A stretch of 64,000 nt of DNA from assembly GCA_963789955.1 (NCBI GenBank), contig CAWBMV010000006.1:32001-96000 (forward strand). Reading direction: 5' to 3'. Positions 22,131 to 42,540 of the stretch are shown piece after piece. How positions within the stretch are numbered: position 1 is the first letter of the stretch; the number at the start of each line of letters is the position of its first letter. The DNA comes from an uncultured Candidatus Rokubacteria bacterium. Lineage in GTDB: Bacteria > Methylomirabilota > Methylomirabilia > Rokubacteriales > CSP1-6. The translations under genes were made by a program, and so were the position numbers. Under the pieces are notes generated by a model. The model saw only the letters and a program-made list of their open reading frames with translations, searched no databases and was not told the DNA's origin.

Positions 22131-23375
22131 ATGGACTTCGAGGTCACGTACACGGAAGAGCAGCAGCGGTTCCGGCGCGAAGTGCGCGCCTGGCTCGAGG
22201 CCACCGTGCCGGCCTCGATGCTCCGGACGCCGACCTCGGCCGAGGACAACTACCGGCGTTATCTCGAGCTTCGTGATTTCGGCCGCAAGCTCGGCGCCAA
22301 GGGCTGGCTCTATCCCACCGCGCCCGCGAAGTACGGCGGCGGCGGCCTCGACGTCGACCACGCCATCATTCTCGAGGAAGAAGTCGACCGGTTCGATCTC
22401 TCGCTGCCGCCCTACTACGACAGCGGCGGGCGGCTCGGCTCGGCGTCGATCCTCGTGTGGGGCACCGAGGAGCAGCGCCAGAAGTTCCTGCCGCCGATCT
22501 ATCGCGGCGAGGTCCGCACCTGGCAGCTCCTGACCGAGCCCGGCGCCGGCTCCGACCTGGCCGGCGTGCGCATGACGACGGCGGTGCGCGACGGCGACGA
22601 CTACGTCATCAAGGGCCAGAAGATCTTCGTCGGCAGCGACAACGGCACCGACCGGATCTGGATGATCGTCTGCACCGATCCCAAGGGCAAGCGCCACGAG
22701 AATCTCTCGTGGTTCATGATCGACGCGAGCCTGCCGGGGATCACGATGCAGCCGATGGAGCTGATGGGCACCGGCGGCGAGGGCGGCACCGACAGCGGCG
22801 TCAAGCAGACGGTCTTCTTCGACGACGTCCGCGTGCCGGCGTTCGCGCTGGTCGGCGGCGAGAACAAGGGCTGGACGGTGGCGACGACGCACCTCGAGCT
22901 CGAGCACGGCGGCGGCGGCCGCATCGGCCGCAACCGCGTGTGGGACCGGCTCCTGCGCTATTGCCAGGAGACCAAGCGCGACGGCGTGCCGCTGAGCCAG
23001 CAGCAGGACGTGCGCGACAGCCTCGCCGACATCTACATCAAGACCGAGGTGCAGCGGCTCTTCGGCCTGCGCAACTTCTAGCTCACGTACGCGCGCAAGC
23101 CGAAGTCCTACGAGGGGCCGCAGCTCTCGTACTACCGAAAGACCACCGGGCTCTGGATGACCGGCGCGATCCTGGAAGCGGTCGGCCCCGCGGCGCTCAC
23201 GACCGATCCGGCCTGGGGCTCGTCGGCCGGCTTCCTCGAGACCCAGCAGCGCAACGGCATCGTCTCCGTCCATCCCGGCGGCACGACCGACATCCAGCGC
23301 GTGCAGATGGCCCGCCGCATCGGCATCGGCCGGTCGACCCGCGAGAAGGCCGGCACCGTGCACGGGGCGGAGTGA
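22131..23375 (+). CDS. Acyl-CoA dehydrogenase (FadE26-like subunit) interrupted by an in-frame TAG at 23079-23081
   Basis: LTEPGAGSDLAG, IKGQKIF, VFFDDVRVP, GENKGW and C-terminal GGTTDIQR. ORFs 22131..23081 and 23157..23375 share one frame. Confidence 0.85.
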
Positions 23376-23378
23376 GCG

Positions 23379-24499
23379 ATGGATCTGGCGCTGACCGAAA
23401 GCCAGGAGATGCTCCGCACGACCGCGCGCACCTTCATGGAGCGCGAGGCGCCGGTCGACGTGGTCGTGGGTCTGCAGAAGGCCGAATCGTCCCTGGATCC
23501 CGATCTCTGGGCGAAGGCCGCGCGGCTGGGCTGGCTCGGCATCGTGCTGCCCACCGAATACGGCGGAAGCGGTGACAGCCTGAGCGACGCCGCGGTGCTC
23601 TACGAAGAGCTCGGTCGCGGGCCGCTTCCGGGCCCGTTCTTCAGCTCCGGCGTGCTCGGCGCGCTGACCGTGCTCGAAGGCGGCACCGAGGAACAGCGCC
23701 GGAGATTCTGCCGGGTGTCGCGAGCGGCGAGCGCGTGCTGACCGTCGCGATCACCGAGCCGAACACCTCGTGGGGTCCCGGCGGGATCACCTTGACGCCT
23801 CAGGGACGCAACGGGAGCCTCGTCCTGAACGGCACCAAGCTCTTCGTCAGCGACGCGACGTCGGCGACCGATCTGATCGTCGCGGTCCGCACGGGCGACG
23901 GCACGACCGACGTGAGCCTGCTCCACGTCGACGCGAAGTCGCGCGGGGTGACCACGCGCCGGCTGCCCGGCTTCCTCTCGTGGCAGTGCGAGGTGACGTT
24001 CGACAACGTGCAGGTGCCCGCCGCCGCGATGCTGGGCGAGGCGCAGCGAGGCTGGACGTCACTTTCTCGGGCGCTCGAGCGGGCGCTCCCGCTGCTGTGC
24101 TCGTACATCGTCGGCGGGTGCCAGGCGGTCTACGAGAAGTCGGTGCTCTACACGCAGACCCGCGTGCAGTTCGGCGTCCCCATCGGGCGGTTCCAGCGCG
24201 TCCAGGACCACGTGGTCAAGCTCGTCAACCACCTCGACAGCGCGCGCTGGGCCACGTGGGAGGCGCTCTGGAAGCTCGACACCGGCCGGCCCGCGACCGC
24301 GAGCGTCCATATGGCCAAGGCCGTCGCGAGCGAGGCCTATCTCGAGGCGTGCAACGCGGCGCACGAGGTGCACGCCGGCATGGGCGTGCTGGTCGAGTAC
24401 GGCCTCCCCGCGCACACGCAGATGTCGCGGACCCTGTTCCACTACCTCGGCGATCCGCGCTGGCACAAGCGCCGGATGGCCGACGCGCTCGAGTGGTAA
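23379..24499 (+). CDS. Acyl-CoA dehydrogenase (FadE27-like partner subunit); frameshift near 23710
   Basis: MDLALTESQEML, EELGR, AITEP, LNGTKLFV, RVQFGVPIGRFQ and HEVHAGMG. Confidence 0.85.
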
Positions 24500-26928: not shown

Positions 26929-27769
26929 ATGCGTGACCTCGTGAAGAGTCTCAACGAGCTGTGCGACAGCGCCGAGTTCGAGGTGAGCTGGTACCTGAAA
27001 GACCTGGCGAGCGGGGCGACCGCCGATCGGCGTGGCGACGTGCCGGTGCCGTCGGCCAGCACGCGCAAGATCTCGATCATGATGGCCGCGCTGGCCGCCG
27101 TCCACGCCGGCAAGCTCTCCCTCGATCAGAAGATCACCATCGATTCACGCTTTCAGGACAACGACTCCGGGACCTTCCAGCACCTGACGCCGGGGTTCTG
27201 GCTCACCCTGCGCGACGCGATGGTCATGATGATCATCGTCAGCGACAACACGTGCACCGGTCACGTCGCCGACGTCGTCGGGCTCTCGAATATCCAGCGC
27301 TACACCGAGGCGGTCGGCCTGACCGGCACGGTGCACCGCTACGGGATCCCGCCGAAGACCGGGCCCGACAACACGCTCGACCGGGTGACGATCGACGACC
27401 GCCAACGACCAGGGGCTCCTGCTCGAGATGATCCTGAACGGGACCAAGGACCCGGCGGTCGCCGCCAAGCTTCAGTGCACGCCCGCGCTCTGTCAGCTCG
27501 GGCTCGACATCCTGTCGTGGCAGAAGCTCAAGACCCGGCTGCCGTCGCTCCTGCCGCTGGGCACGAAGGTCGCCCACAAGACCGGGACCGGCCACCGCTG
27601 CTACAACGACGCCGGCATCATCTTCAAGGGCGACCGCCCGCACTGCATCCTGACGGCCTATACGGTGGCCGTGCCCGATGCGATCAAGGACGGGACGCCG
27701 GGCTTCGCCGCGGCCTACCGGCTGATCGGGCGGATGGCGCGGATGTCCTACGACGGGCTCGGAGGCTAG
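26929..27769 (+). CDS. Class A beta-lactamase-like serine hydrolase with no signal peptide; frameshift near 27395
   Basis: SxxK (ASTRK), SDN, KTG (HKTGT) and NDAGII motifs. Confidence 0.8.
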
Positions 27770-29549: not shown

Positions 29550-32086
29550 CGAGGCGCTCCGTCCGATGGCGCCGGGCGCAGACGGTGCTCCATCGACTGG
29601 AGCTGTTGCCGCAGGCGCTCCTGTTCGGATTGCAGGGTGCCGAGAGTCCTGCGGACGTCGGCCAGCTCCACCGAAGGGCCTTCTCGCGCGGCTGCGCTGA
29701 CGACGTCGGGGACCAGACGACTGACTTCTCGCATGAACACGTCGGCGCGTGCCGTGTCGCCGCGCGTCGCCGCGAGCGCGTAACGGAACAACGTGAGCCC
29801 AGCGCGTCGCGCGTCCGCGGCGGCCGGCGTCGGCGGGAGAACTGGCTCGGGACGGTCGGCGAGCTTGCGCGCCAACGCCTCGGTGTAGTCGGCGAGTGGC
29901 TCGCCGATGAGCCAATCCTTGTCGCCGGTCGCGCCCATCCGCGTGAGCCGCGGTGCGAGGAACTCGATGAGGGGCTGCTCGTCGCGGCTCACCGGGCCGT
30001 CCGGGATCACGCCCGGCGACGATGACAGGTCGCCGAGATAGAGCATCGCGATCGCGAGCGGGGCGGTGAGGAGCGAATCGCGGCTCCAGTCCGGGAGTAT
30101 GCCGAGCCGCTGAGCCATGTGGTCGAGGTCCACGCGAAGCGGTTGCCGGCTGCCGATGAGGCCGAGCACCGGGCGATTCGGGTAGAAATCGTTGCGCCAC
30201 AGCGTGACATGCGGAAACGCCGTCATGAACGTCCGCGCGATGATCTCGAACTCTTCCCGCGTGAGCTGGTAGAGCGGCAGCCACTGGCAGAACAGGCCGC
30301 TGTCGCTCAGCCGGCGCGCCGCCGTCCGGTACATGTCGACCGAGTAGAGATTGCCGGTCGAGGCGTGCCAGGGAATGAACAAGTCCGACACGATGACGTC
30401 GAACCGCGCGTCGCTGGCGGCGAGATAGCGCCGGCCGTCGTCGACCACCAGCCGCACGTCGCGCCGATCCAGCAGGCCGGCGTTCCATTTGCTGAAATGC
30501 TTCTGGGCCAGCACGGCGACCTCGGGAACGACCTCGACGACCGTAACGTCGTCGACCTTCAGCGCGATGGCCGCACTCGCACTGATGCCGGTGGCCATGC
30601 CGATGAAGGCTATCCGACGCGGCGACGGATGCAACAGCAGGGGGATCAGTCCGAGCCGGCGCTCGTTGCGCTCGGCCGCGCTGCCGCCGAGCACGTAGTA
30701 GTTATCCAGCCGCAGCTGGCGATCGTCGCCGGTGTCGACGACGCTCACGATGCCGGACGGGCTCTCGAGCAGAGCCTGTACGGTCTCACCCGGATTCAGG
30801 AAAGTCAGCGGCGCGCGGAGCGGATCGGCGACGACGACCAGAACGAGGCCCGCGTAAGCGAGCCAGCGCATACGGCGATCGATGTCGACGAGAAAGGCGG
30901 CGAGCAAGAGGGAGACGACGGCGGCCAGCAGGAATCCCGCGCGCACCCCGAGCCAGGGCAGCACCGCGAACCCTGCCGCGACCGCACCGCCGATGCCGCC
31001 GACGAGGTTGGCACTCGTCAACCCGCCGACCGGACGCGCGGAGCTGTCGCGCTCGCCGACCGCGGCCCACAGCGCCGGCAGCACGACACCCGAGGCGAGC
31101 GTCGCCGGTCCGGCAGTCAGGACGACGAGTCCCACGATGCGCGCGACGTATTCGACCAACCCTGACTGCATGCCCACGTATCGCAAGCCGCCGGTCAGGT
31201 GGACGAAGGCCCACACGCCCGCGATCGTCGCGAGGCCCGCGAGGAGGAGACCGGCTCCGGCGAGACGCCTCGGCGCGAGGCGACGAAGAAGAAGGGCCGA
31301 CAGCTCGGCGCCGGCGGCGAGCGCGAGGAGGAATACCAAGGTCACTGCGGCGAACGAATAGACCGAGTTGTGCAGTACCTGAGCGAAGAGAACGACCCAG
31401 AGGATCTCCAGGCTCATGCCGACGAACCCGAGGCCCAGCGCGACCAGTAGGAGCGAGCGCGGCGCCGATATCGTCGCGACGGCGGAGCGCGGCGCGTCAG
31501 GTTCGGACGCATCACCGATCGCCAGCGCGACGCCGCCGGCCAGGGCGCTCGCCGCGGCGGCCACGAAGTAGCAGGCCGTAACCCCGATCAGCGCCGGGAG
31601 GCCAAACCCCATCGCCGCGACGCCGATCGCGCCGCCGAGGGTGTTCAGGGCATAGAGCGCACCGCCGCGTCGCCCGACCAGGTCAGGCGCGGCAAGTGCC
31701 TGGCAGAGCGTCGGCAAGGTGGCGCCCAGCGCGGCCGTAACGGGCACCACGATGAGCGCGACGACCGCCACGCGGCCGACCGGGCCGACGGCGATCAGCG
31801 CCCGCTGCGCACCATCGGACGCGAGCAGGGAGAACGCGGCCCACGACAGCACGGCGCCGCCGCTCGCCGTCAACTCGAGTAAGGCGTAGCGCCGAACGGG
31901 CCGGAGTGGCGCGAGTCGCGCGAGCCAGGCGCCGGCGCCGAGCCCGGCGAAATAGGCCGCGACGACCGTCGCCGTCGTCACGGCCGTCGCGCCGAGCACG
32001 AGACCGGCCGAGCGGAGCCACAGAAGCTCGAGGCCGAGTGCACTCGCGCCGGAGAGCGCGAAGCACGCCCAGAGCAGCTTGTTCAC
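29546..32086 (-). CDS. Fused MFS-like membrane domain / spermidine synthase-like SAM-dependent transferase
   Basis: Multi-TM N-terminal half, then FIGMATG, VEVVPEV, DDGRRYL, FDVIVSD and GLFCQWLP. Confidence 0.85.
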   Translation of the reverse strand: MNKLLWACFALSGASALGLELLWLRSAGLVLGATAVTTATVVAAYFAGLGAGAWLARLAPLRPVRRYALLELTASGGAVLSWAAFSLLASDGAQRALIAVGPVGRVAVVALIVVPVTAALGATLPTLCQALAAPDLVGRRGGALYALNTLGGAIGVAAMGFGLPALIGVTACYFVAAAASALAGGVALAIGDASEPDAPRSAVATISAPRSLLLVALGLGFVGMSLEILWVVLFAQVLHNSVYSFAAVTLVFLLALAAGAELSALLLRRLAPRRLAGAGLLLAGLATIAGVWAFVHLTGGLRYVGMQSGLVEYVARIVGLVVLTAGPATLASGVVLPALWAAVGERDSSARPVGGLTSANLVGGIGGAVAAGFAVLPWLGVRAGFLLAAVVSLLLAAFLVDIDRRMRWLAYAGLVLVVVADPLRAPLTFLNPGETVQALLESPSGIVSVVDTGDDRQLRLDNYYVLGGSAAERNERRLGLIPLLLHPSPRRIAFIGMATGISASAAIALKVDDVTVVEVVPEVAVLAQKHFSKWNAGLLDRRDVRLVVDDGRRYLAASDARFDVIVSDLFIPWHASTGNLYSVDMYRTAARRLSDSGLFCQWLPLYQLTREEFEIIARTFMTAFPHVTLWRNDFYPNRPVLGLIGSRQPLRVDLDHMAQRLGILPDWSRDSLLTAPLAIAMLYLGDLSSSPGVIPDGPVSRDEQPLIEFLAPRLTRMGATGDKDWLIGEPLADYTEALARKLADRPEPVLPPTPAAADARRAGLTLFRYALAATRGDTARADVFMREVSRLVPDVVSAAAREGPSVELADVRRTLGTLQSEQERLRQQLQSMEHRLRPAPSDGAPR

Positions 32087-32964
32087 GCCGGGCGGAACCT
32101 GAGCGCCTGTCGGAGCCGGACCGCGCTACCGACGACGACAAGCACGGCGGCGCTCACGGCCACTTCGGCGGGGCCGAGCGGCATGTCATAGCGATACGCC
32201 GCGCAGAAGCCGACGAACGCGGTGACGCCTCCGATCGCCGCCGAGGCGATCGAGAAGGTCAGCATTCGCCGCGTGACGAGGCGCGCGGTGAGCGGCGGCG
32301 CCAGCAGGAATCCGAACGTCACGAGGGGGCCGGCCGCAAGAACGCCGAATGAGATCGTGAGGCCGCACAGGACGTAGAGCGTCGTGTCCCAGACGGTGGT
32401 CGACTTGCCGAAAACCACGGCGAGATCCCGGTCGAACGAGACGAGCAGAAATTCCTTCTGGAAGACGAGGAGGACCACGACGACGAGGCCGAGGACGACG
32501 CCGAGAAACGCCACACTCTTCTCGGTCGCGGCCAGGAGCTCGCCCTTGAGTAGATTCACGATGTGCGCCTCACCCCAGGGGTCGGCCGCCAGGAACAGGA
32601 TCGTGAGGGCGCCGGCGATCGCGTAGACCATGCCGATGCGCGCCTCGACGATCCCCCGCCCGCGCCGCTCCAGCGCCGCCAGGGTGAGGATCCCGATGAG
32701 CGTGAAGGCGGTGGCCCCGACCCGGGCCATGATGGAATCGCTGGCCCCTCCGTGGGGATGGGGCCCGACGATCGTGCGATGCATGAGGAGCGCGAAGGCG
32801 ATGCCGGCGGCGGAGAGCTGCGGAAGGGCGACCCCGAGGAAGATCATGCGGCGCAGGACGAAGTAGACACCGACGAGCGGACAGACGACGCCGACCAGGA
32901 CGCTGGCGACCAGCGCGTCGCGCAGGAGGAACCCGGGCCGCAATACCTCGAGGACCGTGCTCAT
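32083..32964 (-). CDS. Zn/Mn-type metal ABC transporter permease
   Basis: GVYFVLRRMIFLGVAL, LLVSFDRDLA, FLLAPP and YDMPLGP; hydrophobic. Confidence 0.88.
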   Translation of the reverse strand: MSTVLEVLRPGFLLRDALVASVLVGVVCPLVGVYFVLRRMIFLGVALPQLSAAGIAFALLMHRTIVGPHPHGGASDSIMARVGATAFTLIGILTLAALERRGRGIVEARIGMVYAIAGALTILFLAADPWGEAHIVNLLKGELLAATEKSVAFLGVVLGLVVVVLLVFQKEFLLVSFDRDLAVVFGKSTTVWDTTLYVLCGLTISFGVLAAGPLVTFGFLLAPPLTARLVTRRMLTFSIASAAIGGVTAFVGFCAAYRYDMPLGPAEVAVSAAVLVVVGSAVRLRQALRFRPA

Positions 32965-33659
32965 GCGCTCGACGGCACCCCCAGGTCGGCCGCGGCCATC
33001 ACGTCTTCGACCCGGCGCCGGGCGACGCGCCCATCCTGCACCCAGAACACCCCGGTGGCGAGGCCCTGCAGCATCCGCGGCTGGTGCGTGACGAGCAGCA
33101 CCGTCAGGCCCGCGTCCCGGTTGAGCCGGCTGAGGACGCCCATGATCGTCGCGGTCGCCTCCGCGTCGACGCCCGCCGTGGGCTCGTCGAGGAGAAGGAA
33201 GCTCGGCTCGGCGGCGAGCGCGCGCGCGATCAGCGCCCGCTGGGTCTGACCGCCTGAGAGCGAGGCGAACCGCTGTTGCGCAATCGCGCCGAGCCCGACC
33301 AGGTCCAGGGCCTCCGAGGCCCGTCTGCGCTCGGCCCGCCCGACACGCCGCCATGGCGCAAGGCGCGCGTATGTGCCCATCAGGACGACCTCGAAGACCG
33401 TCAGCGGAAAGCTCGGATCGAGCGACTCCCGCTGAGGCACGTAGCCGAGCGGGCTCGCGGCGCGGTCGAAGCCGTACTCGAGGGTGCCCTGGCTGACCGG
33501 CATGAGTCCGACGATCCCGCGCAGGAGGGTCGTCTTGCCTGCGCCGTTGGGTCCCAGCAGCGCGACGAATTCGCCGCGCTCGATCTCGAGGCTGACGTGC
33601 TCGAGGACCTGCCGATTCCCGTACCCGAGGCTGACGTTACGGAGTCGCAGAAGGCACAA
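32961..33659 (-). CDS. Metal ABC transporter ATP-binding protein
   Basis: GPNGAGKTT, GYVPQ, LSGGQTQR, LLDEPTAGVD and VTH. Confidence 0.92.
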   Translation of the reverse strand: MCLLRLRNVSLGYGNRQVLEHVSLEIERGEFVALLGPNGAGKTTLLRGIVGLMPVSQGTLEYGFDRAASPLGYVPQRESLDPSFPLTVFEVVLMGTYARLAPWRRVGRAERRRASEALDLVGLGAIAQQRFASLSGGQTQRALIARALAAEPSFLLLDEPTAGVDAEATATIMGVLSRLNRDAGLTVLLVTHQPRMLQGLATGVFWVQDGRVARRRVEDVMAAADLGVPSSA

Positions 33660-34583
33660 GAAGGGCCGCCGAGCCTCCTGTCACCGCTTTGACCAGGGTG
33701 CGGACATTGTAGTCAATGAGGTCGATATAGTCCTTGGCCTCGGGCACTCCGCGGACCATGGCCGGCAGCTCGACCAGCTTCGCCCCGGTGGACTTGGCCA
33801 CCGTCTCGGCGAGCCCGGCCGGATAATGCAGCTCGCGGATGACGATCTCGACCTTGGCCTGACGCATGCGCTCGATGAGCTCGGCGACGTGCGCCGGGGT
33901 GGGATCGACGCCCGGCCGAATCTCGATCGTCCCGAACTGGATCATCCCGAAGCGTTCGGCGAAGTAGATCATGTCCGGGTGATACGCCACGAATTTCTTG
34001 CCCTTCAACGGCGCGGCCTCACGCTGCCAGCGAACGATCGCCTCGTCGAGCTTTGCGTTGTAGGCGTCCCCGTTCTTCTTGAAGACCGCCGCATGCTCCG
34101 GGTCGAGACGGGAGAGACCGTCGACGATCGCCCGGACGATGTTCTTGCCATTACCGGGGTCGAGATTGAAATGGGGGTTGCCCATCGGATGAACGTCGCC
34201 GAGGGAACGATCGAGACGGGTGGGCACCTCGAGCGGCGTGACGTAGACGGAGCAGTCGATGTAGCCCGGCATGTCACGCTGGATCTTCGGGTTCCGACTG
34301 GCCTCGAGCAGAGCCGGAAGGAACGCATGCTCGGCCTCGAGCCCCATCAGGATCACGCCGTCGGCGCGATTGAGCAGGACCGCGAAGCTCGGCTTCATCG
34401 GGACCGCGTGGATGTCCTCGACGCCGGTCGCGAGGCTCGCGACGTCGACGAAGTCGCCGCCGACGTTGCGGGTGATGTCGGCCAGATCCGGGATGGTCGT
34501 CACGATCCGTAGCTTCTTGGCCGCGTCGGCGCCGCCGGGAAGCAGCACGGTCGCGACGAGAATGACGAGCAGAAATCTCTCAT
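33637..34583 (-). CDS. Metal ABC transporter substrate-binding protein (ZnuA/TroA cluster); frameshift in the signal peptide
   Basis: VTTIPDLADI, EDIH, GDVHPMGNPH, AYH, YFAERFG and PTPAH. Confidence 0.9.
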
Positions 34584-34666: not shown

Positions 34667-36051
34667 CTATCGATCCCGGAAGCCGTGGACGTGACTACCC
34701 ATGACGATCGTCCATTGCAGGAAGAACGCATCGTCGGTCGGCTTGGATGACGGCAAGCTCGTTTCGCTGTGGGTGTATTGGAGCCGAATGCGCTGGAACT
34801 CGGACGCCCAGATGGTGAAATACGGTGAGATCTGCCAGGTCGTGCGCGACGGATTGTCGATGTCCTGGACGTATTCCAGCAGGATCCCCGGGTAGTAGCG
34901 GCGGGTCAGGCGCGCCTCGAAATAGGTGTACGCGCCGACCGCATCGCGATATCTGAAGACCTGGGTAGGGCTGTCGTCGGTCGGGGGAATGCCCGGTCGG
35001 GCCTCGTGATTCACGAGGAGCTCGCTGCCCCAGATGAAGCCACGGTACGAGGACTGGCCCAGCGGTGCGTACCGCAACGTCATATCGAATCCGAACAGAT
35101 TTCGAGCCTTCAGCCCTTCGATTCGCACCTCCGGCGTGTAGGCGTCGCTCAGCCCGAGGTCGAGCCCTAGAGAATCGCTGAGGCTGAAGTACGTGGCCAC
35201 CCGACCCAGGTAGGTGAACTCCGAAAGATCGCGCGGTACGAGGTTGGAGACGCGATCGTTCTCGGCACCGATCTTGTTGTACATGCCGGCCGTGAACGTC
35301 AGGTACTGATCGATCGGCGCCAGCCAGCTCACCTCGACGCCGTCGGCCTGCGATTCTCCGCCGACGTACTGGTCGAGGACGAGGGGCCGGTTCACGAACG
35401 GCAGATCGTGGTCGTGGAACGTGGACAGGCGTCCGAACTCGGCGAAGAAGCGCCCGCCCTTGACCGTGAGGTTGTAGGGGAGCGCCGTCGTGACGATGGC
35501 GGCTTCCTCGACCTCGACCCCGTCCGCCGTCCCGTTGATGATGGCGTACGCCCTCGCAAACGGATCGACACTCGCCGAGATCCCCAGCTCACCCGACCGG
35601 AACTCGAAGTTCGAGTGGTTCTGCCGACTGTCGAGAACACCGAGTCGACGACGAATCCGATGGCTGGATTGAACTGAGATGGGAACGTCTTGTTCGCCGC
35701 GGCGAGTTGCGGCTGGATCTCGGCCAGGATCATTCGCTTGAGCTCCTCCGCGTCGACCGCCATGGGTGCCGGAGTCGGCGTCGCGGGCGGAGCCGCCGAG
35801 GGTATCGCCGGGGGAGGCGCTGCGGGCGCGGCTGACGGTGTGGGTGTGCCCGGTTTCTCGCCCGAGAGCTTTCGGATCAGCTCCTCCTGCTGTTTCATCT
35901 GTTGCTCGACGCGCTGCAACTGCTGCTTGACTGCGTCGAGCTCCCGGCGAAGCTGCTCTTCGCTCGCCGGCTGCTGGCTATGACCGGCGTAGGACCGCCG
36001 AGTATCACTGCCGTGCCCAGCAATACGACGACGGGAAGTAAGCACGCGCAT
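34667..36051 (-). CDS. Outer-membrane beta-barrel metal uptake protein (zinc-regulated receptor-like); frameshifted
   Basis: Coiled coil and Pro/Ala linker, SQFNPAIG, alternating beta-strand pattern and C-terminal SEFQRIRLQY...FFLQWTIVMGSHVHGF; heads the metal ABC operon. Confidence 0.75.
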
Positions 36052-36127
36052 GCGATCCTCCGTATGGACATCGAGCTTGCCGGCAGCGGAGCCGGCGTGG
36101 TCGAGCTACGTCAGTGCGCGGAGGACG

Positions 36128-36409
36128 CTAGCGGAGCGGAGGAGCGCGAGAATCGAAGCGGTAGAGCGCCTGGCCCTGGATTCGGCCCGAGCGCTGGTGG
36201 GCCGCGAGCAGGGAGGCCAGGAACAGGACCACGACCGGTACGGTTTCGGCCAGCGACGCGGTCGAGCCGAGCGCCGCCATCAGGCTGAGGTCGTGCTCTG
36301 CGTTCCAGAGCCCCGACTCGGCCGAGACGTGGACGTGGAGAAGGGTCGCGCCGGCGACGACGAACGCGACGAGGCCCAGCACCAAGAGTAGCGACTTGAA
36401 CTTCGTCAC
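36128..36409 (-). CDS. Small membrane uORF with HxH/EHD motif and C-terminal RAPP (DUF2946-like putative arrest peptide)
   Basis: N-terminal TM, LLHVH...GLWNAEHD and FDSRAPPLR*; lies directly upstream of the outer-membrane transporter. Confidence 0.7.
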   Translation of the reverse strand: MTKFKSLLLVLGLVAFVVAGATLLHVHVSAESGLWNAEHDLSLMAALGSTASLAETVPVVVLFLASLLAAHQRSGRIQGQALYRFDSRAPPLR

Positions 36410-36476
36410 GGCGCTAACAATACCTCACTTCTCGGTGTACGCAAAGCCTGCGAAGGACTCACCCGAGGGGCGTGCC

Positions 36477-36845
36477 TCACCGCCGACCCGTCACCGTGAA
36501 GGTCAAGGTCGACTCGACGACGTGGCCGTCGACCGACAGCACGCGAAAGCTCACGGTATAGCGTCCGGGCGCGAGGAGAGGCAGCGAGACCGCGAGCCGC
36601 CGGGCATCCTCGGCCGACACCGCGACGTCACGCAGATCGACCTGGGCCCCCGCCTCGTTGGTCACCGACGCCTTCGAGTACGCCGGCTCGAGGCGCTCGT
36701 TGAACCAGAGCTCGACCCGGGGCGGCGGCTCGACGAGCGCGGCTCGCTGGGCGGGGACGGACTTCACGAGGACCGCGTGCGCGAGGGCCGCGGCAGGCCG
36801 GAGCAGCAGGGCGGCCAGCCCGGCGAGGACGAGACGCCGTCTCAT
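36477..36845 (-). CDS. copC: Copper resistance protein CopC
   Basis: Signal peptide, then mature N-terminal His (AHAVLVKSVP), LWFNE and GRYTVSFRVLSVDGHVV. Confidence 0.9.
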   Translation of the reverse strand: MRRRLVLAGLAALLLRPAAALAHAVLVKSVPAQRAALVEPPPRVELWFNERLEPAYSKASVTNEAGAQVDLRDVAVSAEDARRLAVSLPLLAPGRYTVSFRVLSVDGHVVESTLTFTVTGRR

Positions 36846-37210
36846 TTGATCTTCTCGATCGCGGTGACGGCCAGGTTCGGCAGAATGCCTCGCAAGGTGA
36901 ATCGTACCGCGTCGCCGACGGCCACGGCCTCCTGGATCTTCGGCGACGCGACGCGAAAGCCCATGGTCATCGCCGGCATGTAGCCCGGGATGTCGCCGTG
37001 CGTGAGCACGATCACCCCGAGCTCGGGAAAGATCGCGCGCACGACGCCGTCGACCGTCCACTGGCGCTCGACTCCGCTGGTGGCGGCGGTGCGCGCCTCG
37101 TCGAGCTCGCGCTCGAGCCGGGCCGCGCGAAGCCCCCAGAAGGCATAGCCCCAGCCCACACCGACGACGAGCGCCAGGTTGATCAGGAGCACCGCCTTCC
37201 AGGCCCGCAT
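36842..37210 (-). CDS. Membrane-anchored CusF-like copper-binding protein
   Basis: LTHGDIPGYMPAMTMGF...VGDAVRF (His/Met CusF motif). Confidence 0.8.
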   Translation of the reverse strand: MRAWKAVLLINLALVVGVGWGYAFWGLRAARLERELDEARTAATSGVERQWTVDGVVRAIFPELGVIVLTHGDIPGYMPAMTMGFRVASPKIQEAVAVGDAVRFTLRGILPNLAVTAIEKIK

Positions 37211-39187
37211 CAGTGCACGTGCTCCTCCGGCGCCGCCTCCGCCGTGATCTTCTCGTCGTTGAGCTGCTGCACCTGGGCCATGAACGAATCGAGGTCGCCG
37301 GCCTCGCCGCCGCTTCGAGTGATGGCGCGGATGTAGCCCTGGCGATCGATGAGGAGCTCGACGTGCGGAGCGACCGCGAACATCCGATAGGCGGCCACGA
37401 TCGTCTCGGCGCCCTCGGTGACCACCGGGAACATGATGCGCGGGTCCGGACCGAGATGACGGATCGCGTCCGGGTCGGCGTCGATCGGCACCGCGATGAC
37501 CTCCACGCCGAGCATCGCCAGGCTTCCCTCGTGCTGGGCGATCTGAGTCATCCGCGCGCGCGAGCCGGGCAGCGCGTACAGCACGACCAGCACGTTGCGG
37601 CCCCGATAGTCCTTGAGCGTGCGCGCCGGCGTCGGGCCGACCGTGAACGTGAAGTCGGGTGCGACGAGCCAGCGCCGGTCGCGCTCGATCGTGGGTCCCA
37701 TGCCTCGGGCGCCGTACCCCGCCGACAGCGCGCGCAGGAAGTTGATCAGCTCCCAGCGTTGCTCCTCGCCGAGCCGCGAGTCGAATCCGGGCATCCCGGA
37801 TCCCGAGATCCCGTGACTGATCCACCAGAACAGGTCGCCCGCCGTGTGCTGCGCGGTGTGCGGCGCGCGCAGGTCGGCAGGGGACCGCGGAAGCCCTCGG
37901 CCGTCGGGGCCGTCGCCTGCGCCCCGCGGCCCGTGGCAGCCCGCGCAGTTCGTCTGGTAGAGCGCGGCGCCGGCCGTGATCGCGCCGGCCTGATAGGGTA
38001 CCGAAGGGCGCAGATACGTCGTCGGGTACGCGTCGATCGCCAGCGGCGGAAGCGCGAGCCCGGCGCCGGCCCCGAGCAAGGCGAGCGCGACCATCGCCAG
38101 GGGAAGCCGCCAGGCGCGCATCGCGATCCCGGCGATCAGGGCCAGCAGACCGATCACACCGATCTGGCTTCCGATCAACGCACGCGCCGTCTCGTCGGCG
38201 CGGCCCTCGAGCGCGGCGAACGACAGGCGGATCGTGAACGGCCAGAGTGGCGGCTCGTGACGGGCCGGCGGCGTGACGCTCATCGCGGCGACGATGGCGA
38301 CGATCGCCAGCGCCAGGATCGCCTCCACGAGCACAAATCCCGCGAGTCGGCGCATCGCCGGACGACCGACCGCCGGCCCGTCGCCGCCGAGACGGGCCAG
38401 AAGAACCGAGCGATTCACTGCGGCCAGCACGAGAATGAGCACCAGCAGCCCAAGCTTGGCGAGGAGCAGACGCCCGTAGGTCGTGCCGACGAGCCCGGCG
38501 ACGTTGCCGACGTGGGTGACCGCGAGCGTGGTGCCCGTGATCGCGAGCAGGAGGATCACGCCCAGCGCGGCGCGCGAGAAGCTCCGCGCCGCGAGCACCG
38601 CGTACGGCCGCGCATCCGCGCCGGCGTCCGTCGACGCCTTTTTCAGGAGAAGCGCCAGCGGGAGCAGCCCTCCCACCCAGATGCCGGCGCCGAGCACGTG
38701 CAGGGCGTCGACCGCGATCGCCCGCGCGGTGTCCGGCTCCACGGCGGCGGCGTGACCCGCCGCCGCGAGCGGCACCAGGGCCGCGACCCCGAGCAGCATC
38801 GCTTCGCCTCTCGCCGCCCGCCAGTCCGCGCGCCGCGCGACGGACACGCGCAAGGACAGGAAGGCGACGAGCATCGACGAGGAACCCGGCGCGCACGAGC
38901 CAGACGTGGCCGGCCTGGGTTTCGACCAGCACGCGTCCGATCGCGCGGGCTTCGAGCGCCGCGGCCGGCCGATCTTCGAAGAGGGCCGCCTGCGTACCGA
39001 CCACGACGAGGCCGGACGCGAGCGCGACGAGCGCGCAGCCCCACGCCCAGGCGAGCACGCGCCGCTCCCAGGCCAGTGCGGTCGCGCGATCAGAGCGGCC
39101 TGCCATCACGATCATCGCCGCGGCGCCGACGAGGAGGACCGAGCTGGCGAGATGGAACCAGCGAGCGGTGAGACCGAGCGCGTACAC
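37210..39187 (-). CDS. copD: CopD membrane domain + cytochrome c + redoxin-like fusion; frameshift near 38880
   Basis: RWFHL, AGHAAA, LHVLGAGIWVGGL, YGRLLLAKLGL, heme motif CAGCH, GDLFWWISHG..MPGF, APDFTF..TLKDYRG and C-terminal EEHVH. Confidence 0.85.
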
Positions 39188-39803: not shown

Positions 39804-40791
39804 ATGCAAGGGAAGACTCTATTCGCGTGCGCGCTCGCGCTGGCGCTCTCGTTCGCGACGTTCGACGCGGCTCAGGCCCACGGCCTGATCGGCAAGCGGT
39901 TTTTCCCGGCGACCTTGGCCACCGACGATCCGTTCGTGGCCGACGAGCTCTCGTTGCCGACCATCTCCTATCTCAAGCTCCGGGGCAGTGAAGACGCGCC
40001 CCCGACGAAACAGATCGACCTGAGCGGCGAGTTCTCGAAGCGTCTGAGTCCCGAATCTGGGCATCTCGCTCGCTGGGACCTTCACGATGCTGGACCCGGA
40101 CGAAGGCTCGTCCGTGAGCGGCTTCGACAACCTCGAGGTCTCGGCGAAGTACGTCTTCTTCAAGAACGCCCCGCACGAGCTCCTGCTGGCGGGCGGTCTC
40201 AGCTGGGACGTGGGCGGCACCGGCAGCAAGAAGGTCGACGCCGAGAGCTTCGACACGTGGACGCCGCAGCTCTTCTTCGGCAAGGGCTTCGGCGATCTGC
40301 CGGATCAGCTCGAGCTGATGAAGCCCTTCGCGGTGACCGGCGTGTTCGGCCTGGCGATTCCCTCGCGCGTGCACACGAAGACGTTCGAGACCGACGAAGA
40401 CGGCACCGTGGACGTGAAGAAGCCGCTGAATCCGATGGTGTTCCAGTGGGGGTTCAGCTTCCAGTACAACCTGCAATACCTGCAATCCTACGTGCGCGAC
40501 GTCGGGCTCCCGGCGCCGCTCAACCGGATGATTCCGATCGTCGAGCTCGTGCTCGAGACGCCGCTCGACGGGCGGGACGCCGGGCGCACGACCGGCACCG
40601 TGAACCCGGGGATCATCTGGTTCGGGCGGTATTTCCAGCTCGGGCTCGAGGCGGTCATTCCGGTCAACCACGACATCAGCAAGAACATCGGCGCCCTCGC
40701 GCAGATTCACTTCTATCTGGACGACATCCTGCCGCAGGTCTTCACGTGGACGCCGTTCCACGGCGTCCTCGGGCCGACGCAGCCGCAGTGA
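39804..40791 (+). CDS. Putative outer-membrane beta-barrel protein, copper-associated; frameshift near 40055
   Basis: Signal peptide with mature N-terminal His (AHGLIGKRFFPATLATDDP), SGFDNLEVSAKY and alternating aromatic strands; cotranscribed with copC/copD. Confidence 0.7.
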
Positions 40792-41139
40792 GCCGACTGC
40801 TGGCGGTGGCGCTGCTTCTGCTCGCTCCGAGCTGGGCCGGGGCTCACGCGTTTCCCGACCATTCCGAGCCCCGGGTCGGGCACACGGTGGAGGCGTCGCC
40901 GCCGGCAGTCCGCATCTGGTTCGACGGGCAGATCGAGCCCGTGTTCAGCAAGCTTCGCGTCGAGGACGCCAACAACCGACAGGTCGACAAGGGCGACTCG
41001 CGGGTGAATCCGACGGACGCGAACAATTCTCGAGGTCGGTCTGCCGCCGCTGGCGCCGGGCCGATATCGCGTGTTCTGGAGCGTCGTCGCCCGTGACGGC
41101 CACCGGACCGAGGGCGATTTTGCTTTTCGGGTGAAATAG
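40788..41139 (+). CDS. copC: Copper resistance protein CopC, second copy; frameshift near 41025
   Basis: AHAFPDHSEP, RIWFD and GRYRVFWSVVARDGHRTEG. Confidence 0.88.
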
Positions 41140-41155
41140 ACGGGACGCCCCAGAC

Positions 41156-42540
41156 GTGATCGCCCTGCCTCTGCACGAGCTGCTCCTGGCGACCGGCGGC
41201 CGCTGGCTCGGACTGCTCGCGCTGGCGGTGCTGGTCGGCGGCCTCGTGCTCGACTGCGTCGTGCTCCCGCGCCACGCCGGAGAGCTCGTGACGGCCCGGC
41301 GCCGGCTCCAGCGGTGGATCAGCCTGGCGATCGTGCTACTGCTCGTGACGTCCGTGATCGATCTTCTGGCCCGAGCGCGCGTGATGAGCGGGGGCGACCT
41401 CTCGCAGGTGGGCACGGTGCTGCCGCTCGTGCTGACGCGCACGCACTTCGGCACGGTGTGGATCGCGCGCGCGATCATTCTCGTGGCTCTCCTCGCACTC
41501 TCCGCGTTGCGTCGTCGCCGGCAGCCGGATCGTCGGGTTCGTGCTCGCCCTCGGCGTCGCGCTGACCGGTACGCTCACCGGGCACGCCGCCGACTGGGGC
41601 GATCGCTCGTTCTCCGTGCTGGTCGACTGGCTTCACGCGGTCGCCGCCACCGCGTGGACGGGAGGGCTGTTCGGTCTGGCGATCGCGCTCAGCCCGCGGA
41701 GCGCGTTCAGGATCGGCGCCTCATCCGAGCTGCTCCGTACGGTCGCGCGGCGATTCTCGCGTCTCGCCGGGTACTGCCTGCTGGTCGTCGTCGCCAGCGG
41801 TGTCTACAACGCGTACGTTCAAGTGCCGACCTTCGCTTCGCTGTGGACCACGACGTATGGAGCGGCTCTCCTGCTCAAGGTCGTGCTCGCGCTGGTCCTC
41901 GCGCTGCTGGGCGCTGTGAATCGCTACCTGGTGCTGCCGGGTCTCGGGGCGACCCGCCCGCGACGGCGCGGACGGCTCCGCCGGCTCTGTCGCATCGCGC
42001 TCTTCGGCGCCGCGACGGCTCAGGGAGCAGCGCGAACCCGGCTCTCGCGGCTGGTCGGGCGCGAAGCGGCGGTCGCGGTTGTCGTGTTCGGCTGTACGGC
42101 CGTCCTCGGCGAGTCCACCCCCAAAACCCACGAGGCCCACGCCTCCCACGTCGGCGATCGAGAGGAGGACGGCGCGCATCACGATGCAGGAGCTGCATGC
42201 GAGCGGCGGCGTGCCGAAGGGCTGGATGTTCACGCCGCCCTCGGGCGACGCCGCCAGGGGCCGTGAGGTGTTCGCGCGGCTCGAGTGCTACACGTGTCAC
42301 GCGGTGGCCGGCGAGACGTTCCCGCGGCCCTCGAAGGTCGGGCCCGCGCTGAGCGACGTCGGCCACCATCATCCGCCCGGCTATCTCCTCGAGTCGGTCA
42401 TCAATCCGAACGCCGTGATCGTCGAGGCGCCGGGCTATACTGGCCCCGACGGACGCTCGATCATGCCCGACTATCGCGACAGCCTCTCGACCCGCGAGCT
42501 GATCGACCTGATCGCCTACCTGAAGAGCCTCGGAGGCTAG
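41156..42540 (+). CDS. copD: CopD membrane domain with C-terminal cytochrome c, probably one fusion; frameshifts near 41520 and 42170
   Basis: THFGTVWIAR, TGHAADWG, DWLHAVAATAWTGGL, RRFSRLA, YGAALLLKV, then GDAARGREVF..CYTCH..MPDY..LIAYL. Confidence 0.8.

Follow-up and report, generated by a model that had tools for sequence, protein, structure and literature searches.

Within a 64,000-nucleotide (nt) stretch of DNA from an uncultured Candidatus Rokubacteria bacterium (assembly GCA_963789955.1, contig CAWBMV010000006.1, positions 32,001 to 96,000; hereafter the window), we identified a small, well-conserved gene of soil Rokubacteria that encodes a putatively membrane-targeted peptide with candidate metal-binding His/Asp motifs and a C-terminal Arg-Ala-Pro-Pro (RAPP) sequence and that probably serves as a translational metal switch, most likely for zinc. 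We hold with moderate confidence that the gene for this peptide, the leader, opens an operon for metal uptake (leader, porin-like channel, ZnuA-type protein, ATPase, and permease) and that the nascent leader senses metal in cis, in the manner of CruR and CutF. Bacterial metal uptake is usually explained by cytoplasmic repressors, for example Zur and Fur. In the CruR and CutF systems, a nascent exported peptide reads periplasmic copper and controls the next gene via ribosome arrest (PMC9426467, PMC9973294).

The leader open reading frame (ORF) lies on the minus strand at 36128..36409. It encodes 93 amino acids (aa), starts with GTG (36409-36407), ends with TAG (36130-36128), and contains no Cys codon; its frame is intact in the window, unlike that of the porin gene behind it. 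Directly past the N-terminal hydrophobic segment there is a putative pair of metal ligands, H25-V-H27 (codons at 36329..36337, minus strand), followed by a putative second ligand cluster, W35-N-A-E-H-D40 (36290..36307, minus strand), both recognized from conservation. The arrest motif R88-A-P-P91 (36137..36148, minus strand) is encoded by CGC GCT CCT CCG, which includes the pentamer CCUCC, complementary to a Shine-Dalgarno (SD) sequence, and the peptide ends two residues later, with Leu and Arg. The original prediction, made from the letters of this DNA, had described a 93-aa Cys-free ORF with HVH, WNAEHD, and RAPP and with two hydrophobic stretches, one of them N-terminal. Both the coordinates and the description were correct, and hydrophobicity (15-residue windows) indeed peaks near residues 6-20 and 55-70. 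An AlphaFold2 model of the leader, built from a 137-row alignment, has helices at residues 3-20, 39-48, and 57-74 and a mean predicted local distance difference test score (pLDDT) of 80.

The leader belongs to a family that, in source databases, consists of nameless entries or of entries called "hypothetical protein." Of 60 candidates from a word-indexed search, 19 proteins, all 93-139 aa long, reached E ≤ 0.01 (best E 3.7e-41). An exhaustive profile search of 1.84 billion representatives gave 196 clusters at E ≤ 1e-3, 80 of them at E ≤ 1e-10, with nearly all matches being 90-110 aa long and aligned end to end. Such numbers of matches lie far beyond chance. In the alignment of 19 sequences (the window and 18 others), L9, H25, H27, N36, E38, H39, D40, L41, L43, P58, R88, and A89 are invariant, and W35, D86, S87, P90, and P91 are at least 90% conserved. 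When 137 full-length members were compared (drawn from representatives of 50%-identity clusters, with a mean column identity of 25%), R88, P90, and P91 were invariant, and H25, H27, N36, H39, and A89 were at least 90% conserved. The expectation of the original prediction that HxH, EHD, RAPP, and their spacing are conserved is borne out by this family profile; variability of the His residues among homologues, which the prediction had named as the result that would speak against it, is not what we found at H25, H27, and H39.

Motif counts were made on the 128 of 137 members that fit the motif pattern (nine do not). The triplet at positions 38-40 reads EHD in 81 members, DHD in 28, EHV or QHV in 10, AHV in one, and QHD in one, and bears Cys in the remaining seven. 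The arrest motif is RAPP in 122 members and RGPP in six. The linker between triplet and arrest motif is poorly conserved in sequence but kept in length: it has 45 residues in one member, 46 in 38, 47 in 81, and 48 in eight, and among the loci examined at the DNA level the spacing is 46-47 residues in 57/58. In 106 members, seven residues lie between HxH and the aromatic-Asn pair. The tail past RAPP has two residues in 98 members and three in 16, and two in 58/58 loci. A hydrophobic 15-residue stretch (at least 1.6) precedes HxH in 124 members, and a Lys or Arg is found ahead of this stretch in 120 of 137; from HxH onward, 94 of the 128 are free of Cys. Several synonymous codons are used at conserved residues of the motifs in 57 non-duplicate loci (four each at A89, P90, and P91; two each at E38, D40, and L41), and hence selection acts on the peptide.

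The fixed spacing bears on an alternative in which the peptide would serve the transporter as a small, stable subunit in the membrane or as a metallochaperone, similar to CbtB, and RAPP would be incidental. The conserved N-terminal hydrophobic segment and His-rich loop would suit such a role, as would the three helices of the model and its pLDDT of 80, and 2/19 members match CbtB faintly (Pfam E 0.11; one NCBIfam match at 0.073). These CbtB scores are far below any cut-off, however, and a subunit would need neither an invariant R-A-P-P with a fixed two-residue tail and a non-conserved linker of a fixed 46-47 residues nor the rare CCT codon at P90 and the anti-SD tracts by the stop codon that are described below. 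We therefore regard a subunit or metallochaperone as very improbable. PhrK, which 11/19 members match at chance level, was set aside as an N-terminal hydrophobic look-alike.

The family profile matches 91/201 sampled genomes of the phylum (three of the 91, G029, G058, and G101, are flagged as unpublished), 52/104 among those at least 90% complete, and 82/125 genomes of the window's taxonomic family; the window's own genome has one copy. The genome loci are titled Rokuibacteriota or Methylomirabilia, with one Binatia. The latter (L006, genome G201, Candidatus Binatia) seems to be placed in the window's phylum, since a search of the phylum of G201 gave the same single locus scoring with DUF2946, a leader family that we return to below, as a search of the window's own phylum. 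The leader family thus represents an unannotated gene that present pipelines miss or name "hypothetical protein."

Upstream of the leader, the minus strand carries a promoter-like site consisting of a -35-like hexamer, TTGCGT (36439..36444), and a -10-like hexamer, TATTGT (36417..36422), with a spacer of 16 nt between them and with the -10-like hexamer 7 nt ahead of the GTG. The corresponding pattern (TTGC[AG]N, 16-18 nt, TATNNN), when sought in the 120 nt before the ORF, was present in 37/55 non-duplicate loci with enough upstream DNA. It had no match in the remaining ~508 kb of locus sequence and a single match on both strands of the 64-kb window, at 36444. A stricter sigma-70 scan (9-of-12 rule) found no promoter. 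From the -10 hexamer to the first in-frame start codon there are 7-11 nt in 36/37 loci; this spacing suggests that the leader mRNA is leaderless or nearly so.

Downstream of the leader and on the same strand there is a gene for a porin-like outer-membrane barrel (34667..36071), followed by genes for a cluster A-I metal substrate-binding protein of the ZnuA family (33637..34548; PF01297, 182.8 bits), an ABC transporter ATPase similar to ZnuC and AztA (32961..33659; PF00005, 101.5 bits; AztA 193 bits, cut-off 220), and a ZnuB-like permease of the ABC-3 family (32083..32964; PF00950, 122 bits; the listed ORF extends to 33354, with the domain starting at about residue 144). The order of leader, porin, ZnuA, and permease is kept in all seven genome loci as far as these reach. 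We also analyzed 76 metagenome loci obtained by a scan with a 31-member alignment subset (A4); counts from this set include near-identical loci and so are not independent. The porin gene is next in 32/32 metagenome loci with at least 1,900 nt past the leader start, and a ZnuA gene is present behind it in 23/23 with at least 2,900 nt. CopC, the product of the gene directly upstream in the window, is encoded directly upstream of the leader in 1/47 metagenome loci with enough upstream DNA. Because the porin and ZnuA genes are constant and CopC is rare, the leader belongs with the downstream module. The original prediction, according to which the leader heads a Zn/Mn uptake operon, holds in that Znu-type genes follow and a promoter-like site precedes the leader; it needs correction in that the directly next gene codes for a porin-like barrel and not for ZnuA.

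The RNA around the stop codon of the leader provides a possible link between translation of the peptide and expression of the operon. The tract CGUCCUCCG (36119..36127, minus strand), an anti-SD, lies directly behind the stop codon. The downstream gene has a GGAGGA SD (36061-36056) five nt before its ATG (36051-36049), the two together occupying 36049..36061 of the minus strand. The intergenic region is 76 nt long in the window and 57-102 nt in other loci. In the minimum free energy (MFE) fold of the window, CGUCCUCCG pairs with the downstream SD, and in an RNAalifold consensus the SD pairs with post-stop UCCUCC in 8/8 aligned loci. An anti-SD pentamer (CCUCC, CUCCC, UCCUC, or CUCCU) occurs within 12 nt past the stop codon in 39/58 non-duplicate loci, compared with 4.1% of background windows, and the first 15 nt past the stop codon are 80% pyrimidine and 15% G (52% and 34%, respectively, in the background). 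No RNA family of Rfam was found in 35800-36700 at E ≤ 1.

A further anti-SD pentamer, CCUCC, is present inside the RAPP codons in 32/60 loci because Pro90 uses CCT. This codon (36140-36142 in the window) is CCT in 29/57 loci, although CCT makes up only 3.7% of the Pro codons of downstream ORFs and 4.6% of those at other positions in the leaders; the use of CCT here could serve RNA pairing, slow decoding, or both. Taken together, 48/56 loci have an anti-SD pentamer in the RAPP codons or within 12 nt past the stop codon, and 27 have both tracts. The SD is predicted to be paired in 52/56 loci. We also computed MFE folds from the Arg codon to position +12 of the next gene in 56 loci. The SD core is paired within the segment from the RAPP codons to 20 nt past the stop codon in 44/56 of these folds, with the partner lying in the 20 post-stop nt in 29, in the tail or stop codons in five, and in the RAPP codons themselves in 10. 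When Pro90 is in the P site, the first base past the stop codon is at +16, because the tail consists of two codons (58/58 loci). With this geometry, an arrested ribosome would hold one anti-SD inside and abut the other. By predicted pairing alone, the ribosome-binding site of the next gene would thus be masked by RNA that lies under or abuts the arrested ribosome, which is a criterion for RAPP arrest peptides.

These features can be combined into a mechanism, in which arrest, co-translational export, metal binding by the tethered chain, modulation of arrest, and unmasking of the SD are all proposed by analogy with CruR, CutF, and the RAPP literature. The N-terminal hydrophobic segment would bring the nascent chain to the Sec translocon, and the ribosome would arrest at R88-A-P-P91, its P site holding Pro90 and its A site Pro91. 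During arrest H39/D40 would be 49 residues away from the arrest Arg, and HxH 14 residues further out, so that both ligand sites would be at or just past the periplasmic mouth of the translocon. Metal bound by HxH together with the E/H/D cluster would alter the pulling force on the chain and hence the duration of arrest. As the arrested ribosome would cover the CCUCC of the RAPP codons and abut the post-stop tract, both of which are predicted to pair with the SD, arrest would expose the SD and turn the operon on; after release of arrest and termination, the helix would re-form. For an importer, the expected logic is that bound metal releases arrest and the operon is turned off. This sign of the switch is an expectation drawn from physiology and from CruR.

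The same arrest sensor could instead have a transcriptional output. In this alternative, the arrested ribosome would shield the post-stop tract, which is C-rich, G-poor, and similar to a Rho utilization (rut) site, from Rho; metal would release arrest, the exposed tract would be used by Rho, and transcription would terminate before the porin gene, perhaps in addition to SD masking. The pyrimidine-rich, G-poor composition of the first 15 nt past the stop codon is compatible with such an output, a terminator scan of the minus strand found no intrinsic terminator-like site, and CruR controls its uptake receptor in this way (PMC9426467). On the other hand, the intergenic region, at 57-102 nt, is short compared with the 162 bp of CruR, and the complementarity of the tract to an SD that is predicted to be paired in 52/56 loci already explains its conservation. 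We consider a Rho-dependent output distinctly unlikely and prefer SD unmasking by the arrested ribosome.

Several observations weigh against the proposal that the leader controls its operon through arrest and unmasking of the SD. At the RNA level, the fold of the window (141 nt) has a z-score of -0.73, which is not significant. The six SD/anti-SD pairs of the consensus are invariant save for one G-U, with no covariation; 8/56 loci have no anti-SD pentamer; and the SD core pairs elsewhere in 11/56 MFE folds and is unpaired in 1/56. Compared with the remaining windows in these G+C-rich loci, the SD/anti-SD duplex energy is only moderately better (median percentile 0.14; 9/56 below 0.05). With its first base at +16, the post-stop tract lies right at the margin of a ribosome footprint; its opening is uncertain, and the switch could therefore have the opposite sign, such that only those ribosomes that pass RAPP and reach the stop codon would open the helix. 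Matches to sequencing runs included no RNA sequencing runs, the 20 matching ones being soil or wetland DNA contigs with a word share of at most 0.17. At the peptide level, the second hydrophobic stretch is present in only 91/128 members, and hence a hairpin topology is not general. The whole-gene ratio of nonsynonymous to synonymous substitution rates (median 0.66) is too weak to serve as coding evidence, as would be expected if only few positions and a length matter. In the porin-like gene of the window, the signal peptide is read from the ATG at 36071, the coiled coil from the ATG at 36051, and the barrel from about 35650, so that the parts of the protein are spread over three frames. A single additional base is present at 35629-35631 in four contigs that stem from three related soil runs; the frame break at this place is therefore specific to this assembly or strain, and is an assembly error or a strain-specific mutation. 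Finally, searches for DUF2946 (PF11162; gathering score 23.7 bits) were negative: the window ORF had no match to it in Pfam at E ≤ 0.1, the 19 close members gave none at E ≤ 10, and a six-frame scan of the window's own genome gave nothing at the place of the leader at E ≤ 1.

The original prediction had presented the peptide as a variant DUF2946 leader, and this assignment failed when scored with the hidden Markov model of the family: with none of the 19 close members matching, and only 3/137 members doing so faintly (best E 0.016), "DUF2946 leader" can be kept, on sequence grounds, as a working analogy or as a sign of remote kinship, not as membership. Across the phylum, PF11162 scored above its cut-off in 1/201 genomes. 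In the ESM Atlas, the nearest clusters are unnamed ones from Methylomirabilota/Rokuibacteriota, and among named clusters the closest one (score 0.90) has PF11162 on 24% of its members, which we treat as a lead only. The traits by which DUF2946 leaders are recognized are shared in part. Where these leaders have CXXC or CxxxC, the peptide has E-H-D and is devoid of Cys altogether. In more than 2,000 DUF2946 members, 45 residues, plus or minus one or two, intervene between the metal motif and RAPP; in the leader family, 45-48 residues lie between the E-H-D triplet and RAPP in 128/128 members. RAPP itself occupies residues 88-91 of 93, and the N-terminal segment, with its hydrophobic window and the model helix at 3-20, is a putative signal peptide or N-in/C-out transmembrane segment, a further trait of DUF2946 leaders. 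The leader also passes an operational filter for CutF-like proteins (Ozturk et al., 2023, PMC9973294), being 93 aa long with PP at 90-91, an N-terminal hydrophobic segment, and the next gene 76 nt away on the same strand.

Natural variants point in the direction of kinship. At position 39, seven of the 128 members have Cys rather than His (ECP in four, NCS in one, DCG in one, and ECD in one), and H39-to-Cys forms with E-C-P-L are also found as paralogues in a sister taxonomic family. One relative, L017, has HxH, PGLY, a CxxC whose first Cys is in register with H39, and RAPP followed by two residues. It is matched by the leader-family profile with E 1.4e-8, and by PF11162 at 21.3 bits, below the cut-off. 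A search for relatives of the CxxC bridging form (P0169) found none among the longer or similar-length proteins searched. L017 and the natural H39-to-Cys forms are signs of kinship with DUF2946 leaders rather than of convergence.

The sister subfamily (L099-L102, from genomes G108, G096, and G138) has HxH, L-Y-D/S-E-E/D-C-P-L, and RAPP or RGPP with tails of 3-12 residues, and is present in up to four copies per genome. Its E-C-P-L leaders stand before a TonB-dependent receptor gene with ExbB, or before a porin-like gene with ZnuA and ABC-3 genes. One of them lies next to a gene of the Fur family (PF01475, E 4e-15) and directly precedes a strong ZnuA match (265 bits) with ZnuC. Upstream of another leader, visual inspection alone pointed to a second Fur-like sequence. 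Other sister leaders precede three SPFH/Band-7 genes or a gene two positions before DUF1007. With targets so varied, the family is not tied to a single one. Four other small ORFs of the same phylum that end in RAPP (L011, L016, L012, and L013) score 21-25 bits against DUF2946. Their metal-type motifs differ, examples being HSVHHLP together with one CP motif and AYHSHPDG together with TCPLHFW, and several unrelated-looking types of RAPP leader therefore coexist in the genomes of this phylum.

As for the metal that the leader would read, we give zinc slightly less than an even chance, copper a much smaller one, and leave the remainder to other metals (Ni, Co, Mn, and Fe). The binding protein of the window is a clear member of the general family PF01297. 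It keeps three His ligands that align with those of its top PDB match, 7lm7 ("Adhesion protein"), which we take to be the Zn-binding AdcAII; the fourth ligand, Glu in 7lm7, is Val. Against NCBIfam, its best match is AztC at 110.3 bits (cut-off 350), the next-best, MntC, is far below cut-off, and ZnuA reaches 57.1 bits (cut-off 268), which falls short of an equivalog assignment. Judged by gene context, namely the three-His binding protein and the sister leaders found by a Fur-family gene, ZnuA/ZnuC, and a TonB receptor, zinc is favored.

Copper has to be weighed because of the genes upstream. Directly upstream of the leader and on the same strand (36477..38874, Pfam assignments), the window has an ORF in which CopD, cytochrome c, and AhpC-TSA (thioredoxin-fold) domains are fused (37210-38874), then a CusF-like gene, and then CopC, which reaches 36477. 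This arrangement counts against zinc, as does the fact that His/Asp sites bind Cu(II), Ni(II), and Co(II) also. If the sensor were for copper, the leader and the porin/ABC importer would work together with CopD, CusF, and CopC, for example in copper acquisition. CopD and/or CusF genes are upstream in six of the seven genome loci (the seventh, L003, is too short upstream), with CopC directly before the leader in four, and they lie further upstream in five metagenome loci (L024, L034, L035, L037, and L067). Moreover, both characterized relatives, CruR and CutF, sense copper, and His-rich sites bind Cu(II). Against this stand the leader's own promoter-like site, the 1/47 metagenome loci with CopC directly upstream as opposed to porin in 32/32 and ZnuA in 23/23 behind, the position of sister leaders next to a Fur-family gene and to strong ZnuA/ZnuC genes, and the three-His pattern of the binding protein, which is that of Zn-type cluster A-I proteins. 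The upstream copper genes probably form a unit separate from the leader, and copper sensing is, in our judgment, unlikely.

In related loci the CopD fusion ORF is 56-79% identical and is likewise followed by a CusF-like gene, and some loci also have an ORF with YncE-like beta-propeller, cytochrome c, and P19-like parts next to it (L034:2818-4782). A second, divergent copper cluster of the window (39804-42352, plus strand) consists of a barrel-like ORF, CopC, and CopD; its first gene appears to be split over two frames (39804-41096 and 40087-40791). Elsewhere in the window, acyl-CoA dehydrogenase domains are distributed over two ORFs (22131-24499), and there is a 113-aa fragment of the beta-lactamase family at 27428-27769. 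These further split-looking genes fit indel errors in the assembly.

The porin-like gene was delineated by tblastn and three-frame translation and encodes a signal peptide, a coiled coil, a Pro/Ala linker, and a beta-barrel that ends in an aromatic residue. In the window it has no Pfam match. An AlphaFold2 model of an intact homologue (pLDDT 68, predicted template modeling score 0.64) was most similar, by Foldseek, to general porins (chitoporin, OmpT, OprP/OprO, DcaP), with no specific family indicated, and a porin profile run against PDB sequences matched only coiled-coil fragments, that of FapF among them. Throughout the porin family, a long loop modeled with low confidence contains an invariant H-E/D-H-D-L-P motif (about 35390-35410 of the window, minus strand; A5 positions 210-215 of L004:6385-7761), and the C terminus is rich in His (GAHPAHPF; GSHVHGF in the window). 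We considered whether the EHDL of the leader copies this porin loop and rejected the idea, as the porin behind an ECPL-type leader keeps H-L-H-D, without co-variation.

Put together in its most specific form, the proposal is that this is the first zinc-sensing nascent-chain arrest switch: a Cys-free peptide made from a leaderless or nearly leaderless message, whose HxH/E-H-D site, 49 residues from the peptidyl-transferase center, would read periplasmic Zn(II) and gate an outer-membrane channel and a Znu-type importer, with CCU at Pro90 doubling as an anti-SD. We advance this only tentatively. If true, it would make the CruR/CutF principle a general, ligand-swappable way of sensing periplasmic metals, with His/Asp for Zn, Cys for Cu, and natural His-to-Cys intermediates. 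The family would extend the principle to His/Asp/Glu chemistry without Cys (and probably to another metal), to the phylum Methylomirabilota/Rokubacteria, and to a porin-like channel with an ABC importer as target. Since the same 49-residue ruler is kept, the mechanism can be tested through the position of the metal site relative to the translocon at the stall, and the natural His-to-Cys and CxxC variants are ready-made specificity swaps.

The general idea is not new, since His-only CutF-like clusters and a census of RAPP leaders are already in print. The census of small RAPP/RGPP ORFs places them upstream of genes for TonB receptors, YcnI, PCuAC, and PepSY, and its source table also has the entry "carbohydrate porin," with 54 RAPP and five AAPP cases (PMC12992588). 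The word "zinc" is absent from the main text of that paper, and five motif strings of the leader family did not occur in the part of its source data examined. Likewise, the part of the supplement text of PMC9973294 that was examined did not contain the terms ZnuA, PF01297, or Rokubacteria. A full-text literature search, with supplements partly covered, turned up no publication that connects a RAPP leader with ZnuA-type importers and no mention of this set of motifs.

Among known systems, the closest in design is CruR (Bp2923) of Bordetella pertussis, the DUF2946 prototype, a protein of 145 aa with CXXC at 90-93 and RAPP at 139-142, in which copper relieves arrest and Rho then terminates transcription ahead of a TonB-dependent receptor gene (PMC9426467). 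In vitro, the arrest of CruR occurs when its two Pro codons occupy the P and A sites (PMC12992588). CruR and the present leader are both encoded by short upstream ORFs and share an N-terminal export signal (putative in the leader), a ligand motif, and RAPP 2-3 residues before the stop codon; both have 49 residues from the first ligand to the arrest Arg (Cys90-Arg139 in CruR, H39-R88 here; PMC9426467); and each heads an operon for metal uptake, with an outer-membrane transporter as the first product. They differ in that CruR uses CXXC to sense copper, has 145 aa and an intergenic region of 162 bp, and acts through Rho-dependent termination, whereas the leader has no Cys, carries HxH and E-H-D in 93 aa, is followed by a 76-nt intergenic region with an anti-SD, scores below the PF11162 cut-off, and precedes genes for a porin-like barrel and a Znu-type ABC importer.

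CutF from Rhodobacter capsulatus has CxxxC and ends in GPPPRL, and an intergenic stem-loop with an anti-SD masks cutO's ribosome-binding site (PMC9973294; bioRxiv 10.1101/2025.02.05.636593). The leader resembles CutF in that an export signal comes first, then a metal motif, and finally a proline-based stalling motif two residues short of the stop codon, and in the intergenic anti-SD that masks the ribosome-binding site of the next gene and that a stalled ribosome is thought to open (a feature which, in the leader, is predicted). Stalling of CutF, by contrast, involves CxxxC and PPP, depends on elongation factor P, and is induced by copper, which turns on a detoxifying oxidase; the leader has RAPP and His/Asp/Glu ligands, and the opposite metal logic is expected because its target is an importer.

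Cys-free leaders have been described before. Clusters 14 and 17 of Ozturk et al. (2023) contain His-only CutF-like leaders that precede HupE/UreJ and for which nickel or cobalt was suggested (PMC9973294). Like the family described here, they are Cys-free and rich in His; they have been proposed in print to sense metals other than copper. As far as can be compared by description only, they come from UniProt reference proteomes and precede HupE/UreJ, whereas our family is found in Methylomirabilota/Rokubacteria and precedes porin and ZnuA/ABC-3 genes. ApdA and ApdP, finally, share with the leader a C-terminal RAPP or RGPP and the form of a small exported or membrane protein encoded upstream of a regulated gene (PMC10951233, PMC7897499), but they monitor the Sec pathway and not a metal.

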